Shown: positions 2,435 through 7,899 of the stretch, one piece after another
Layout: each line of letters begins with the position of its first letter
Numbering within the stretch: position 1 is the first letter of the stretch
Assembly: GCA_016779225.1 (NCBI GenBank)
Contig: JADHNZ010000034.1
Coordinates: 1-34,179, forward strand
Source: Planctomycetota bacterium
GTDB lineage: Bacteria; Planctomycetota; UBA1135; GCA-002686595
Length of the DNA stretch: 34,179 bases
Reading direction: 5' to 3'
Notes under the pieces: model-generated
What the model saw: only the letters and a program-made list of their open reading frames with translations
Database searches by the model: none
What the model was told of the DNA's origin: nothing
Position numbers and translations under genes: made by a program

Positions 2435-3889
2435 ATGAGCCGCCGCTCCCTCGAACGCCTCGCCGCCCTGGTCTGGATCGGGGTCGGCCTGATGCTGCTC
2501 GTGCGCGGGGCGCGCATGCTCATCGCGCACGAAGAGGCTGGAGGCTCGCCCTGGGGCTGGCTGGTGGGCGGCGTCCTCCTGGGCGCCGCAAAGGGGCGCT
2601 TCGTCCTCAGCCGCTCGGCCGCCCGCAACAGGGCGCGGATCGCCGCACTCGAGGCGCCCCGGCCGTGGCAGGTCTTCGCCCCGCGCTTCTGGCCGCTCAT
2701 CGCGGTGATGATGGGCTTCGGCTTCGGACTGCGCAGCCTGGCCGAAGGAGGCGTCCTCGGCTGGGGCCTCGTGGGCGGGCTCTACGCCGGAATCGGCGCG
2801 GCGCTCCTGGCCAGCTCACGGGCCTACTTCGGCGCGCTCCCCGCTCCGATCGACACCGGCATCCCGGCGGACTTCGAGCCCGCGAACCCGCCGCGCGGGC
2901 TGCTGGTGGTGAACCTCGGGACCCCCGACGCCCCCACCGCTCCGGCCGTGCGCAGGTACCTGCGTGAGTTCCTCGGGGACCCCCGGGTGGTGCGGCTGCC
3001 CCGCCCCCTGTGGTGGACGATCCTGAACCTGTTCGTGCTGCCGAAGCGCTCGCCACGCTCCGCCGAGGCCTACCGCAAGGTCTGGGGCGAGCGCGGCTCA
3101 CCGCTGATGTTCCACACCGCGGACACGGCCGCCGGCCTCGCCGAGCGCCTTGGTCCGCGCTGGAAGGTCGTGACCGCCATGCGCTACGGCCACCCCTCCA
3201 TCGCGCACGGCATCGAGCTGCTGGCCGCCGAGGGCGTGCGCGAGGTGACGATCCTGCCGCTGTTCCCCCAGTGGTCGGACACGACCTGCGGCACCTCCCT
3301 GGTCGAGGTGGCCCGGGTGCTGGGCAGCCGCCGCGACGGACCCGCGCCGCGCATGATCCCACCGTTCCCCGCGGACGAGGCCTGCCTCGCCGCTATGGCC
3401 GCGCTCGCGCGCGAGGAGGTGGGCGAGACGCCCATCGACCGCTGGGTCTTCAGCTTCCACGGCGTCCCGGAGCGCTATGTGCGCGACGGAGACCCCTACC
3501 TCGAGCAGTGCCAGGAGACGGCGGTCGGCCTGGCCCGCCACCTGGGCCTCGAGCGCGCGCAGTGGGAGCTCGTCTTCCAGTCGCGCTTCGGCAAGGAGCC
3601 CTGGCTGACGCCGGCCGCGGACGAGCGCGTGCCGGAGCTCGCGCGCGAGGGCGTCGGAAGCGTGGCGGTCCTCACTCCCGGCTTCGCCTGCGACTGCCTC
3701 GAGACCATCGAGGAGATCGGCATGGAGCTGGCGGACGAGTTCCGCGAGGCCGGCGGGACGACCTTCATCCGCGTGCCTTGCCCGAACGCGGACCCGCGCT
3801 GGGTCGCCGCGCTCGCGCGCCTGGTCGAGGAGGCCCCGGCGGCTGCCCTGGCCGTCAGCTCGGAGTCTCGGGTCGCGGCCCGGGCCTGA
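2435..3889 (+). CDS. hemH: Ferrochelatase with an N-terminal polytopic membrane extension of about 150 aa
   Basis: From about residue 155 onward the protein is ferrochelatase-like (LLVVNLGTPDAPTAPAVRRYLREFLGDPRVV, WTILNLFVLPKRSPRSAEAY, FSFHGVPERYV). The N-terminal region is hydrophobic and Gly-rich, and has GC3-rich codons typical of coding sequence. Confidence 0.8.
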   Translation: MSRRSLERLAALVWIGVGLMLLVRGARMLIAHEEAGGSPWGWLVGGVLLGAAKGRFVLSRSAARNRARIAALEAPRPWQVFAPRFWPLIAVMMGFGFGLRSLAEGGVLGWGLVGGLYAGIGAALLASSRAYFGALPAPIDTGIPADFEPANPPRGLLVVNLGTPDAPTAPAVRRYLREFLGDPRVVRLPRPLWWTILNLFVLPKRSPRSAEAYRKVWGERGSPLMFHTADTAAGLAERLGPRWKVVTAMRYGHPSIAHGIELLAAEGVREVTILPLFPQWSDTTCGTSLVEVARVLGSRRDGPAPRMIPPFPADEACLAAMAALAREEVGETPIDRWVFSFHGVPERYVRDGDPYLEQCQETAVGLARHLGLERAQWELVFQSRFGKEPWLTPAADERVPELAREGVGSVAVLTPGFACDCLETIEEIGMELADEFREAGGTTFIRVPCPNADPRWVAALARLVEEAPAAALAVSSESRVAARA

Positions 3890-3920
3890 CCCGCGCACCC
3901 GTCCGGCCGCCTGACGAGCC

Positions 3921-4754
3921 TCAGGGCGCGGCGTCCGGATCGTCCTCCTCGGGCCTGCGCATCGGGGAGAGCATGGCGCGGATGGAGTCGGGCGCGCGGA
4001 AGTACTGAGCAGGCCTCCCGGGCGCGACCTCTGATTCGTCCAACCGCATGCTGAGCATCTCCTCCTCGGCGCAGGGCTCGAGCCAGCCCGGGACCTTGCG
4101 CACCTTGCGCTGGAAGTTGCCGGGCTCGAGACGAACTCCCCACACGGCCTCGTAGACGCGGCGCAGGTCGCTGATCCGGAACGGCCCCGGCTCGAACGCC
4201 GAGGCGAGGGTCGTGTCCTCGAGGCGCTGGCGCAGGGCCTCGAGGGCGTCCTCGAGAATCTGCCGGTGATCGAAGGCCAGCTCGAGCTGCCCGTCGAGGA
4301 TCTCGTCCACGCCGATCAGGTCCGCGAAGGCCGCATCCGAGCCGGCCTGAGGGGTGGGAAGCTCGGGGATCACGGCCCACCAGGCCACGGTGACCACGCG
4401 CATGCGCGGGTCGCGGTCGGGGTCCCCATAGGCACCCAGCTGCTCGAGGTGGCGCGGCCCGCTCTCGATTCCGGTCTCCTCGGCCAGCTCGCGGCGAGCC
4501 GCCTCCTCCAGGCCCTCCCGTGGGAGCACGAAGCCGCCGGGGAGAGCCCAGGCCCGCTCGTGGGGCGGCGTGCCGCGCTGCACGAGGAGCACATGCAGGC
4601 GCCCGCCTTCGAGGGTGAACACCACCACATCGACCGTGACCGCGAACGCGGGGAAGGCCGAGGGGTCGTAGGCGGCGTCGGGCGATGCGCCGGCCCCCTC
4701 ACCCCCAGCACTGCTGGGGGTGCCGCTGGAGGGCCTTCGGCGGGCAGAAGCCAT
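3921..4754 (-). CDS. NUDIX hydrolase fused to a C-terminal NrtR-type winged-helix domain (Nudix-related transcriptional regulator-like)
   Basis: The NUDIX box is intact (GGFVLPREGLEEAARRELAEETGI = G-x5-E-x7-REUxEExGU). The C-terminal part has NrtR-like motifs (RRVYEAVWG, NFQRKV, GRPAQYFRA). Confidence 0.65.
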   Translation of the reverse strand: MASARRRPSSGTPSSAGGEGAGASPDAAYDPSAFPAFAVTVDVVVFTLEGGRLHVLLVQRGTPPHERAWALPGGFVLPREGLEEAARRELAEETGIESGPRHLEQLGAYGDPDRDPRMRVVTVAWWAVIPELPTPQAGSDAAFADLIGVDEILDGQLELAFDHRQILEDALEALRQRLEDTTLASAFEPGPFRISDLRRVYEAVWGVRLEPGNFQRKVRKVPGWLEPCAEEEMLSMRLDESEVAPGRPAQYFRAPDSIRAMLSPMRRPEEDDPDAAP

Positions 4755-4768
4755 GCCCGAAGACTAGC

Positions 4769-4804
4769 TTCTTATCGACTTGACACGAACCCCCGGGGCC
4801 ATTA
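4769..4804 (+). promoter_or_regulatory. Candidate sigma70-like promoter (TTGACA, 17 nt spacer, TATTGT) in the divergent intergenic region
   Basis: TTGACA lies at 4769-4774. It is followed by a 17-nt spacer and then TATTGT, which matches TATAAT at 4 of 6 positions. It points toward the ARH-vWA gene. Confidence 0.2.
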
Positions 4805-5190
4805 TTGTCCCCCATACAAAAAGCGCCAGGGGCCGCGTTCGGACGCTGCTCCTCCCGCGCTGGAACCTCCGCGAGACGCACCCCGCTCGCCTTCGCACCC
4901 CTTGCGGCGACCCAGCTGGCTCCCCGTCAGCCGCTCGCCCCTCCACACCGCCCCCCCTCGCTCCGCGGGGGGCTGCTGGCCCCCGGCCAGTCCTCGAGCG
5001 CGCCGCGTCGCGGCGCTGCTCTCCCCCCCAGGCCCCGCCCTGGAGGCCTCCACCCCTCCCTGGACCCCGCGCTCCCATCGGGCACGGCCAGGGCCCGCAC
5101 CCCGGACCTCAACGCTCCGCGGCGCAGCGCGGACACCTCCCCCATGGGAGGCGCCCCAACCCCACGAAGACACTCCAAGACTCCCAGACG

Positions 5191-6981
5191 AACTTGACGA
5201 ATCCCGACCTCCCCCCCTCCTCCTCCGACCTCCACGACGCCGACCGGGAGCTTGCCCGGCGCGGCCTCTTCCCGACCTCCGGCGAGCTGCCCCCCGAGGC
5301 CACGGCGCGCCTTGCCGCGGGTCCTGCCCCCGGCCCCGAACGCGTCGAGGGCGTCCTCCTCGGCGCGGCCCTCGGCTCTGCGCTGGGACGCCAGGTGACG
5401 GGCATGCGCCCTGAGGGCATCCAGAGGCGCTTCGGCTGGCTGGCCGAGCTTGAGGTGCCCCGCCGCATGCGGGCCTGCCCCCAGACGGATGACAGCCACA
5501 CGCTGAGGCTCACCCTCAAGGCCTGCATGCAGAAGGAGGCCCCGGCCGCCGAGGCCTTCGCTACGGAGCTGATCCAGCACCGCGATGCCCTGGCTCACCT
5601 GGGACGCGCCTCCAGCGAGGCCATGCGACGCCTCGCGGAGGGCCGCCGCTGGTGGCGGGCCGGCACTCCCTCCGCAGGCAACGGCGCGGCCCTGCGCGCC
5701 GCTGCGATCGGCCTGGCGTTCGGCGACGATCTCGAGGCTCTGCGCCGCGAGGCCGCGCGCAACGCCGTGGTCACCCACGCCGACCGCCTGGCCGTGGCGG
5801 CCTCGGCCGTGGTCGCCCATGCCGTGGCGCTCCTCGCTCGAACGCCCGAGGGCTGCCTGGTGCCTGAGGCCTTCCTGGAGCACCTCATCGCCGGACTGGG
5901 CGACCTTGGTGACGCGTACGGAAAGGACCGGCGCCCCGAGGCCCAGGGGAGCAGGATCCTCCTGGCCGAGCGCCTGCGCACCGTCGGCACGCTGCTCGGG
6001 CAGAGTCCCAAGGAGGCCTTCGGCATCACCCAGAACGGAGCCTATGTGCTCGAGACCCTGCCAGCAGCCCTGTGGTGCTTCCTGGAGCACCCCGAGGATC
6101 CCGAGCTGGCCATCCTGACGGCGGTGAACGGCGGGTTCGATGCGGACAGCGTCGCCAGCCTGACCGGCGCGTTCGCCGGGGCCTATCGAGGAGCCTCCGG
6201 CCTGCCGAGTCGCTGGGCCGAGCGCCTCGCCGGAGCACGGGAGTTCAAGCGGCTGGCCCGCAGGCTCGCGACGGGGACCCACGACACGAGCCAGGGCGCA
6301 GGCGCCGCGGATCGGGTGCATGTCTCGGTCCTGCTGGACCGCAGCGGGTCGATGGGGAGCATCCAGGAGGACACCCTCGGCGGCTTCAACGCGTTCGTCG
6401 CGAAGCAGCGGGCGCTCCCCGGGGACTGCCGGCTGACGCTGGTCCAGTTCGACACTGGGGACCCCCAGGAGGTCACGCTCGACGCGGCTCCGATCGGCTC
6501 CGTTCAGGACCTGGACGAGGCGAGCTACGAGCCTCGTGGAGGCACGCCGCTGCTCGACGCCCTCGGGACGCTGCTCGAGCGTCTCGACCTCCGCGAGGAG
6601 GCCGACCCGGACGAGCAGCAGCTCGTGGTGGTCATCACCGATGGTCACGAGAACGCGAGCTGCAGCTACTCGCGGGCTCAGGTGCTGGGGATGGTCGAGG
6701 AGCGCAAGGCCTCCGGGTGGGCCTTCGTCTTCCTCGGCGCGAACATCGACGCCTTCGGGGAGGGACAGTCTCTCGGACTGGGCCGGGGTCAGGTGGGCGC
6801 GTGGCGCCACACCCGTCGCGGCGTGAGGGACTCCTTCGAGCAGGTCGAGGAGGCCACGGCCCTCTACCGCGCGACGGGCCGTGCGGAGCGCGGCGAGCTG
6901 GCCTGCATGCTCATGGAGGAGGTGCGCACCCGCCGCTCCACGCGCCGTCCCCGCGCAGGCGGAAGCAGCCAAGAGGCCTGA
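5191..6981 (+). CDS. ADP-ribosylglycohydrolase (DraG/ARH family) fused to a C-terminal von Willebrand factor A domain
   Basis: ARH motifs are present: GVLLGAALGSALG near the N-terminus and NGGFDADSVASLTGAFAGAYRG near the end of the domain. The vWA domain has a MIDAS motif, DRSGSMGS, plus VQFDTG...GGTPLLDAL...VVVITDGHEN. The listed ORF starts at the ATG at 4780. The 4780-5190 stretch has many codons ending in A/T, unlike the rest of the gene, and the in-frame TTG at 5191 is the only plausible start before the conserved ARH N-terminus. Confidence 0.65.
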   Translation, partial: NLTNPDLPPSSSDLHDADRELARRGLFPTSGELPPEATARLAAGPAPGPERVEGVLLGAALGSALGRQVTGMRPEGIQRRFGWLAELEVPRRMRACPQTDDSHTLRLTLKACMQKEAPAAEAFATELIQHRDALAHLGRASSEAMRRLAEGRRWWRAGTPSAGNGAALRAAAIGLAFGDDLEALRREAARNAVVTHADRLAVAASAVVAHAVALLARTPEGCLVPEAFLEHLIAGLGDLGDAYGKDRRPEAQGSRILLAERLRTVGTLLGQSPKEAFGITQNGAYVLETLPAALWCFLEHPEDPELAILTAVNGGFDADSVASLTGAFAGAYRGASGLPSRWAERLAGAREFKRLARRLATGTHDTSQGAGAADRVHVSVLLDRSGSMGSIQEDTLGGFNAFVAKQRALPGDCRLTLVQFDTGDPQEVTLDAAPIGSVQDLDEASYEPRGGTPLLDALGTLLERLDLREEADPDEQQLVVVITDGHENASCSYSRAQVLGMVEERKASGWAFVFLGANIDAFGEGQSLGLGRGQVGAWRHTRRGVRDSFEQVEEATALYRATGRAERGELACMLMEEVRTRRSTRRPRAGGSSQEA

Positions 6982-7015
6982 CCCCCGGGGCCATCGCGCC
7001 CCCCAAGCAACACCA

Positions 7016-7073
7016 GGCCGACCGCTTGCGGTTGGCCTCAAAAAGGCGGAGGGCCGACCGCTTGCGGTTGGCC
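7016..7073. repeat. Two copies of a 22-nt imperfect palindrome, GGCCGACCGCTTGCGGTTGGCC (7016-7037 and 7052-7073)
   Basis: The direct duplication is read directly from the sequence. Each copy folds as a hairpin (GGCCGACCGC/GCGGTTGGCC). It shares a GGCCGACC core with the hairpin at 7082-7115. Confidence 0.7.
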
Positions 7074-7081
7074 CCAGACAA

Positions 7082-7115
7082 ACGGAGGGCCGACCCCAAG
7101 GGGTCGGCCCTCCGT
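7082..7115 (-). terminator. Strong GC hairpin (about 16 bp stem: ACGGAGGGCCGACCCC aa GGGGTCGGCCCTCCGT) just downstream of the tRNA 3' end; probable terminator
   Basis: A perfect inverted repeat is read from the sequence. On the minus strand it is followed by TCCGTTTGTC. It is positioned a few nt after the tRNA CCA end. Confidence 0.4.
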
Positions 7116-7121
7116 GTGGAT

Positions 7122-7198
7122 TGGTAGCGGAGGCGGGACTCGAACCCGCGACCTCAGGGTTATGAATCCTGTGCTCTAACCAGCTGAGCTACCCCGCC
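7122..7198 (-). tRNA. tRNA-Met (CAT anticodon), 77 nt with encoded CCA; elongator-type, but tRNA-Ile2 (lysidine) cannot be excluded
   Basis: The reverse complement reads GGCGGGGTAGCTCAGCTGGTTAGAGCACAGGATTCATAACCCTGAGGTCGCGGGTTCGAGTCCCGCCTCCGCTACCA. The D arm is GCTC/GAGC, the anticodon loop is TTCATAA, and the T arm is GCGGG-TTCGAGT-CCCGC. The acceptor stem is 7 bp with two G-U pairs. Confidence 0.9.
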
Positions 7199-7305
7199 AT
7201 CGAGGGCGGAGAAGGTACGCCGGGGGGGGCCGCTGGTCAAGGAGACCCGCTCGTCCCCCCCGCCGCAGGACCCACGCGGCGAGGTCTCCGCACTCTGGAC
7301 GCCGC

Positions 7306-7899
7306 TCAGGCGCCCCAGGTCCCCGCGAGGACCTGCTCCCGGATCACAGCCGGATCGTCCCCCGCGCAGAGCTGCCCCCGGACCGAGTGGTAGCCCATGG
7401 CCACCGTCTCGGCGCGGCCAGTGTCCGCACAGAAGATGCGGCAGGTGTCGATCGGGTTCGAGTAGAGGTGCAGCGACACGGCCCGGCCGCCTCGCGGGCG
7501 GATCAGGTGGAACGCGATGCCGTCGTCGATGAAGGCGACCTGTCCTGCCTGGAAGGGCTGCACGCGCCCCTGCTCGATGCCACCCGCGGCCGGAGTGCGG
7601 TAGTGGACCTCCTCCAGCTCGCCCTGCAGGACCCCCATCCAGCAGCGCTGATCGGCGTGGTCGTGGATGGGGCTCTCCTGGCCCTCCTCCCAGCACAGCA
7701 GCAGCAGCTCGTAGGAGCCACACCGCGCCACCAGGTTGCGCGTGTAGCGCTCCTGACTGAAGTGGGTCCAGGAGCGCCAGTCCTCATGGTCCGCCTGGTA
7801 CCGGGAGAGCAGCTTCGGGACGCCCGGACCGCGGGGGTCACGGTCGAACTCGGCCTCGAGGGCGCGACAGAGCTGGTCGATGGGGAGCGGAGAGGCCAT
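7306..7899 (-). CDS. Cysteine dioxygenase type I (cupin)
   Basis: The protein carries CDO signature segments (YTRNLVARCGSYELLLLCWEEGQESPIHDHADQRCWMGVLQGEL; FHLIRP). Confidence 0.8.
   Translation of the reverse strand: MASPLPIDQLCRALEAEFDRDPRGPGVPKLLSRYQADHEDWRSWTHFSQERYTRNLVARCGSYELLLLCWEEGQESPIHDHADQRCWMGVLQGELEEVHYRTPAAGGIEQGRVQPFQAGQVAFIDDGIAFHLIRPRGGRAVSLHLYSNPIDTCRIFCADTGRAETVAMGYHSVRGQLCAGDDPAVIREQVLAGTWGA

Follow-up and report, generated by a model that had tools for sequence, protein, structure and literature searches.

Analysis of a 34,179-bp contig (hereafter the window; ~73% G+C) from a Planctomycetota metagenome-assembled genome (MAG), with NCBI proteins in the MBL67214xx-MBL67215xx range, showed two divergently transcribed genes on either side of a non-coding spacer. 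One encodes a regulator of the NrtR family, and the other an ADP-ribosylglycohydrolase (ARG) domain of the ARH/DraG fold fused to a vWA domain. Two palindromic operators in the spacer overlap the promoter-like site of the fusion gene, and the divergent arrangement recurs in other phyla. The pairing of nrtR with the ARG-vWA gene is real, and its interpretation as a regulatory unit is well supported. For the Planctomycetota clade, the enzymatic half of the circuit proposed for the pair is uncertain.

The regulator sequence was matched exactly in NCBI by a Planctomycetota MAG protein. An in-frame stop at 4764-4766 lies upstream of its open reading frame, and the earliest possible start is the ATG at 4752-4754. 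Its features are as follows.

3921..4754, minus strand: NrtR-family regulator gene, 277 amino acids (NCBI MBL6721498.1, annotated 'NUDIX hydrolase'), Nudix domain N-terminal and winged helix-turn-helix C-terminal
4251..4640, minus strand: Nudix domain, residues 39-168 (Pfam NUDIX, E=6.2e-20)
4467-4535, minus strand: Nudix box GFVLPREGLEEAARRELAEETGI, residues 74-96, intact, an exact fit to GX5EX7REUXEEXGU
3996..4226, minus strand: winged-helix DNA-binding domain, ~residues 177-253, with a match to Pfam PF21906 (NrtR_WHD) on residues 189-232
4101-4118, minus strand: recognition motif NFQRKV, residues 213-218, conserved in partner regulators
3993-4019, minus strand: wing motif GRPAQYFRA, residues 246-254, conserved in partner regulators

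The NrtR_WHD match (E=7.6e-7) reached 29.6 bits, above its gathering score of 27, and the two DNA-binding motifs take the family forms NF(Q/R)RKV and G(R/K)PA among the partner regulators. By sequence, the best solved relatives were BtAraR (5bs6, 2.7e-26), an arabinose-responsive repressor, and the Shewanella NrtR, SoNrtR (3gz5, 9e-26); the alignments to both span the Nudix and winged-helix parts and reach residue 221. Against the NCBIfam NF050029 equivalog, which describes the NAD-regulating repressor, the regulator scored 118 bits for a cut-off of 400. The protein is a member of the NrtR family but is not an NAD-regulon orthologue.

Comparison with SoNrtR, in which Y10, F15, R41, N43, K76 and R98 are the six reported ADP-ribose contacts, showed that four of the six are identical in the window regulator, where Y29, F34, R60 and R117 correspond to Y10, F15, R41 and R98. 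The position of K76 is taken by E93, the canonical Nudix-box Glu. R60 and R117 were invariant in all 25 partner regulators aligned. These data support the prediction that the window regulator retains an ADP-ribose-type pocket. BtAraR shares the two-domain build but has a filled-in nucleotide pocket, with Phe36, Leu67 and Gly89 in place of the ADP-ribose contacts, whereas the window regulator keeps the ADP-ribose contacts. The Nudix box was intact in 19 of 27 partner regulators; in the NrtR family an intact box correlates with ADP-ribose pyrophosphatase activity (Rodionov et al. 2008).

The fusion gene lies in an open reading frame that extends from 4780 to 6981 on the plus strand. The coding signal in third-position G+C, taken from codon-position G+C, begins at ~5140-5190, and homologues of the protein start at a conserved DxELxxRGLLP segment (family alignment A1). 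The start was therefore placed at about TTG 5194 and not at 4780, so that the non-coding spacer covers 4755-5193, in line with where a sequence-only reading of this DNA had put the intergenic region. In a 95% identical contig (L090), the start was called at an ATG equivalent to window position 5144. A one-base indel relative to L090 (5144-5160) puts this ATG out of frame in the window, while TTG 5194 is in frame in both contigs; the indel reflects either real variation or an assembly error.

5194..6981, plus strand: ARG-vWA fusion gene, 595 amino acids counted from TTG 5194
5326..6273, plus strand: ADP-ribosylglycohydrolase (ARH/DraG fold) domain, residues 45-360 (Pfam ADP_ribosyl_GH, PF03747, E=2.4e-51, 175.6 bits)
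6307..6942, plus strand: vWA domain, residues 372-583, with a complete metal-ion-dependent adhesion site (MIDAS), D382-x-S384-x-S386, T451 and D483

An AlphaFold model of the fusion protein, built on 36 homologues, had a mean pLDDT of 90.3 and a pTM of 0.82. Foldseek searches with its N-terminal half returned MJ1187 and ARH3 as the best matches (E ~1e-13), with DraG also matched; template-modelling scores normalised to the target were ~0.78-0.85, as for the same fold. The Pfam scores of the vWA domain were barely over their cut-offs (VWA_2, 27.2 bits against 27; VWA, 23.9 bits against 23.8), and the five MIDAS residues were invariant in 36 of 36 aligned family members. Hidden Markov model (HMM) searches thus bear out the domain assignments of the sequence-only reading, which had described an intact Nudix box, an NrtR-type C-terminal domain and an ARH/DraG-type hydrolase joined to a vWA domain.

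To locate operators, spacers of the family loci were compared. No operator common to the spacers emerged from a listing of perfect inverted repeats, and the motif surfaced only when GT-N7-AC cores were scored with imperfect arms. It is a 23-bp palindrome with the consensus GTTATTGTCAAATTGACAATAAC, a GT-N7-AC core and an 8-N7-8 geometry. At least one site occurred in 24 of 25 non-redundant intergenic regions, and two or three sites in 22; paired sites were most commonly spaced 32-35 bp apart. With leave-group-out matrices, each of which excludes a locus's own relatives, 51 sites were found in 7.5 kb of spacers and five in 319 kb elsewhere in the same loci, a ~430-fold difference in density. The matrix used to scan the window was trained without the window and its relative L004. 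The sequence-only reading had suggested a search of the intergenic region for a palindromic NrtR-type operator, and two were found, both on the promoter of the fusion gene.

4768..4790, no strand: operator 1, CTTCTTATCGACTTGACACGAAC, 23-bp imperfect palindrome, 22.0 bits, the best match in the 34-kb window
4801..4823, no strand: operator 2, ATTATTGTCCCCCATACAAAAAG, 23-bp imperfect palindrome with a GT-N7-AC core, 12.9 bits, the second-best match in the window
4780..4808, plus strand: sigma-70-like promoter of the ARG-vWA gene, TTGACA, 17-nt spacer, TATTGT
4824..5193, plus strand: non-coding, C-rich leader of ~370 nt between promoter and start codon, with no codon-position G+C signal

The third-best match in the window reached 5.1 bits. 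Operator 1, conserved in L004 and L090, contains the -35 hexamer (4780-4785), and operator 2, whose start is 33 bp beyond that of operator 1, contains the -10 hexamer (4803-4808). The promoter was the sole promoter-like site in the interval 3800-7400, where 0.1 was expected from shuffled sequences. The layout recurs across phyla: the proximal site has a -35-like hexamer at its centre, and the distal site carries a TAnnGT hexamer in its left arm. Autoregulation of nrtR is likely, given that its start codon is found 13 nt downstream of operator 1. The operators conform to the rule for NrtR sites given by Rodionov et al. (2008), a palindrome of 21-23 bp with a GT-N7-AC core. The verified mycobacterial MsNrtR operator, GTTTTCGA-N7-TCGAAAAC, shares its 8-N7-8 layout and GTT...AAC ends with the family operator. 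Like SoNrtR and MsNrtR, the window regulator combines a Nudix domain with a winged helix and is divergent to its presumed target gene; unlike them, it faces a gene outside NAD biosynthesis and salvage, and has two operators three helical turns apart. Its Nudix box is intact, whereas the studied SoNrtR and Synechocystis NrtR are inactive (Rodionov et al. 2008).

Matches to the operator matrix were also seen in other settings. In locus L006 (5806-5860), an ARG-vWA gene has no adjacent nrtR, yet two operator sites 32 bp apart lie directly upstream of it, which implies that the regulator is encoded elsewhere in that genome. Two Spongiisocius-type genomes carry extra matches downstream of the pair, at a distance of ~3.8 kb in L037 (11466-11488, 21.8 bits) and ~1.6 kb in L056 (8322-8344, 16.4 bits). 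The L056 site lies between a gene for an XRE-cupin regulator and one for a 427-amino-acid protein with a hydrophobic C-terminus and no Pfam match, and may mark a further regulon member. The operator matrix can be reused for regulon finding in complete genomes.

The leader, which is unusually long, was compared with those of other loci. Alignments with L004, L090 and L093 showed a block at ~4835-4893 that is conserved in the clade and a remainder that is poorly conserved. Leader length is maintained within the Planctomycetota clade, and Acidimicrobiales leaders are ~100 nt. An Rfam search of the 370-nt leader gave no match at E<=1. A structured RNA element was considered and set aside, as a fold z-score of -2.8 and the patchy conservation do not establish one.

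Synteny of the pair was examined next. Three more Planctomycetota-type contigs, with identities of 67-95%, hold the divergent pair between the ferrochelatase and cysteine dioxygenase genes; the Planctomycetota relatives holding the pair with the same flanks are L004, L005, L090 and L093. In marine Acidimicrobiales (L001-L003) the pair recurs in wholly different surroundings, with identities of ~64% for the regulator and ~50% for the ARG-vWA protein. In a survey of one genome per species, with matches then mapped by custom HMMs, NrtR also divergently adjoins ARG-vWA fusions in many Acidimicrobiia and in one Longimicrobiales genome (Gemmatimonadota). An NrtR gene was adjacent in 22 of 29 loci in which vWA is coupled to ARG or to ARPP-1, against four of 45 loci with plain vWA (Fisher p=3.6e-9), and the pairing therefore exceeds chance. 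A core of NrtR and vWA with ARG optional was also considered. It was rejected, since plain vWA is rarely linked to NrtR (4/45) and seven of the 11 NrtR-linked cases without ARG have ARPP-1.

These data bear directly on the simplest alternative, that the NrtR protein controls NAD genes elsewhere and that its position beside the ARG-vWA gene is meaningless. The family is indeed best known for NAD regulons (Rodionov et al. 2008). However, the synteny is maintained across phyla, the operator pairs are confined to the spacer, with no other window site above 5.1 bits, and the score for the NAD-type equivalog falls far from its cut-off. We consider chance adjacency very improbable.

The genes around the pair differ between loci. 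In L001-L003 the downstream genes encode a deacetylase fold, TY-Chap3 and Metallophos (calcineurin-like phosphatase). Their inclusion in the unit was rejected, as they are not conserved in other loci and the remaining neighbours are heterogeneous. Since neighbours vary between loci, the conserved unit is the pair itself. A metagenome scan with the ferrochelatase, meant to test insertion of the cassette beside tRNA-Met through syntenic loci free of it, found no such locus and returned only relatives at 97% and <=47%, none of them informative.

Taken together, the locus is probably a two-gene, self-regulated divergon of the type predicted by Iyer et al. (2022) as 'ARG-centric' ADP-ribose systems. 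Dimers of the NrtR-family protein would bind both 23-bp operators, covering the -35 and -10 elements of the ARG-vWA promoter, and would thereby repress the ARG-vWA gene and probably nrtR itself. An ADP-ribose-type ligand in the Nudix pocket would release the repressor, and the intact Nudix box would probably hydrolyse that ligand and so reset the switch. In the induced ARG-vWA protein, the MIDAS of the vWA domain may hold a protein target, while the ARH-fold domain would bind, and may remove, ADP-ribose on it. This follows the circuit of the sequence-only reading, in which the hydrolase makes ADP-ribose, NrtR senses it and the Nudix domain degrades it. The regulatory part of that proposal is strengthened by the synteny and by the operators on the promoter; the part in which the hydrolase makes ADP-ribose is weakened by substitutions in its active site, described below.

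The pairing is described in the literature, although the sequence-only reading knew of no such description. Rodionov et al. (2008, NAR 36:2047) reported nrtR next to draG in Streptomyces and, in their list of regulons, assigned '#nrtR1-draG-SCO1765' to reversible protein ADP-ribosylation. Iyer, Burroughs, Anantharaman and Aravind (2022, Viruses 14:1977, section 3.8) predicted ARG-centred systems computationally as widespread in actinobacteria, planctomycetes and proteobacteria, with Nudix-HTH (helix-turn-helix) or WYL repressors, phosphatases, and chaperones of the vWA, SseB or TY type. They proposed the same derepression circuit: ADP-ribose set free by ARG induces the operon, and its processing is aided by the Nudix domain. 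The locus is a new member of a kind already predicted in 2008 and 2022 from computation. Added by the present analysis are the operator and its two-site overlap with the promoter, neither the sequence nor the layout of which was found in the main text of Iyer et al. (2022), the statistics tying NrtR to vWA-ARG and vWA-ARPP-1, and the substitutions in the ARG active site.

With the ARG-centric systems the window shares an ARG domain, a Nudix-HTH (NrtR-like) negative regulator, and the vWA 'chaperone', here fused to ARG. Occurrence is likewise actinobacterial and planctomycete, and relatives of the window locus carry TY-Chap3, calcineurin-like phosphatase and ARPP-1. It differs in being a minimal two-gene form, with no phosphatase, effector or defence-island context, and in that its ARG domain is without two ARH3 catalytic residues. 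A coupled phosphatase, absent next to the window pair, is found in ~55% of ARG-centric systems and is not obligatory (Iyer et al. 2022). In ARG-centric systems the ARG gene has no linked ADP-ribosyltransferase or sirtuin; neither was seen among the scanned window proteins or the Pfam matches of the syntenic L004, in a genome that is incomplete and with five of ten window proteins in one scan giving no Pfam match. Rodionov et al. (2008, Table 1) also list divergons of the form nrtR<#>nrtX-nrtY, with two genes of unknown function, in Kineococcus, Frankia, Proteus and Hahella, and Streptomyces nrtX-nrtY as a separate locus bearing an NrtR site. The two-gene arrangement of NrtR facing vWA and ARPP-1, as seen in L058 and L028, has the same shape.

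Several points weigh against assigning the locus to a self-regulated ADP-ribose system. Some members of the NrtR family respond to other ligands, namely arabinose (BtAraR) and NAD (NdnR). A promoter for nrtR was not identified, the minus strand showing only weak hexamers. Housekeeping genes surround the window pair, and neither a defence island nor a phosphatase or effector accompanies it; the ARG-vWA protein is not covered by any PADLOC model, and we found no experimental report in the literature for any member of the ARG-centric systems. Finally, the catalytic pair of ARH3, Asp34 and Glu41, is replaced by Ser62 and Thr69 in the window ARG domain, and the metal motifs of the ARG domain are eroded in many members of the fusion family, where TH alone is invariant.

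The active-site substitutions raise the possibility of a reader and not an eraser. Under this explanation the Planctomycetota ARH-fold domain would be catalytically dead and would only bind ADP-ribosyl groups, the protein would act as a sensor, adaptor or sequestering factor, and the ADP-ribose sensed by the repressor would come from elsewhere, for example from NAD-consuming enzymes. The Asp34 and Glu41 positions are substituted in all four clade members, the three relatives of the window having Ser and Lys. In ARH3 itself the mutations D34G and E41A severely reduce activity, and the inactive E41A protein retains Mg coordination and ligand binding. The ARG domain is nonetheless under purifying selection, with a ratio of non-synonymous to synonymous substitution rates (dN/dS) of 0.08-0.30, similar to that of the vWA domain. 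Erosion of the metal motifs in several other lineages, while the MIDAS stays invariant, and the finding that this vWA can carry ARPP-1, an unrelated domain, in place of ARG, would fit as well.

Other features of the same domain point towards an enzyme. The window ARG domain retains TDDS (98-101), TH (T194-H195) and DADS (316-319). The binuclear metal ligands of ARH3, T76/D77/D78 and D314/D316/T317, are thus present as T98-D99-D100 and D316-x-D318-S319, and the metal-binding Asp/Thr residues on which the sequence-only reading depended are kept. The catalytic requirements were measured in ARH3 alone, so another residue could substitute, and the Glu is kept in 26 of 36 family members. Relative to the ARH3/DraG hydrolases, then, the fold and the TDD, TH and DxD[ST] motifs are shared, while the Ser/Thr pair and the C-terminal vWA fusion set the window protein apart, as does the lack of a recognised partner transferase such as DraT in the window. 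Because the equivalents of Asp34 and Glu41 are absent, hydrolysis by the window ARG domain is doubtful, and from its residues the domain may bind rather than cleave ADP-ribosyl groups. A wholly non-catalytic domain is, in our view, unlikely.

A broader form of this idea would make the conserved MIDAS vWA domain the fixed adaptor in a modular unit for ADP-ribose surveillance, controlled by a self-resetting NrtR switch that senses ADP-ribose. Its heads would be interchangeable (ARG, ARPP-1 or eroded ARG), with the Planctomycetota ARG head a non-catalytic reader. We put this forward as speculative, and it is rather doubtful. If the Planctomycetota ARG were a reader, the output of the system would be capture or signalling, not erasure.

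A housekeeping role, unconnected with phage conflict, was also weighed. The pair would then act on small ADP-ribose compounds (O-acetyl-ADP-ribose, ADP-ribose phosphate) or on regulatory ADP-ribosylation of endogenous origin, in the manner proposed for Streptomyces nrtR1-draG. Core genes (glutamine synthetase III, ferrochelatase, cysteine dioxygenase, Ppx and GltX) surround the pair both in the window and in its relatives, and the clade has inherited it stably; a deacetylase-fold gene follows it in L001-L003, and the assignment of nrtR-draG to reversible protein ADP-ribosylation by Rodionov et al. (2008) points the same way. Set against this are the patchy distribution over phyla, with the nearest non-clade homologues of both proteins in another phylum, and the varying accessory genes; toxin, ATPase and nuclease families are among the neighbours of the Acidimicrobiales pairs. 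A protein-binding module such as vWA would also be unexpected on a small-molecule enzyme. A housekeeping role thus seems quite unlikely.

As a self-regulated ADP-ribose system, the locus would bear on the bacterial response to externally imposed ADP-ribosylation, of which phage transferases are one source, and the pair may have a role against such enzymes. To our knowledge, ARG-centric systems are the sole dedicated host answer to imposed ADP-ribosylation proposed so far. The window locus is their smallest form, comprising two genes with a single promoter and a mapped pair of operators, and makes a convenient test case for release of the repressor by ADP-ribose, reset by the Nudix box, the ligand of the vWA domain and cutting by the altered ARH domain.

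Further genes were seen beside the pair in several loci. Acidimicrobiia loci carry extra NAD or ADP-ribose genes, among them a SIR2_2-domain protein (L007, 5654-7849, minus strand), a second ARG whose C-terminus bears a phosphatase-type HCxxGxxR motif (L012, 8497-10188, minus strand) and another second ARG gene (L069, 7592-9130, plus strand). In the window, a tRNA-Met gene (7122-7198, minus strand) lies 140 bp downstream of the ARG-vWA stop codon.

The vWA family is common in viruses, and the vWA part of the window protein (6301-6981) matches phrog_7371 at 3.1e-48. Standalone copies of ~200 amino acids occur in 215 phage genomes, and among viral contigs at least 364 carry one. None of 80 viral contigs checked had PARP, ARG, ARPP-1 or NrtR beside the vWA gene, and no annotated ADP-ribose-related gene adjoined it in three other phage records inspected. 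A viral version of the cassette was accordingly rejected, the viral-contig scan having given standalone vWA genes only. In the jumbo phage XacN1 (AP018399.1, locus L087, 2681-4612) a WGR-PARP gene (Pfam PARP, 1.2e-22) is followed after 10 bp by a vWA copy; this link between vWA and PARP is a single case so far, because no such neighbour was present in the other viral records examined. Several Microbacterium phage genomes (e.g. MH155873.1, gene 61) carry vWA homologues labelled 'DNA ligase', seemingly a mis-annotation.

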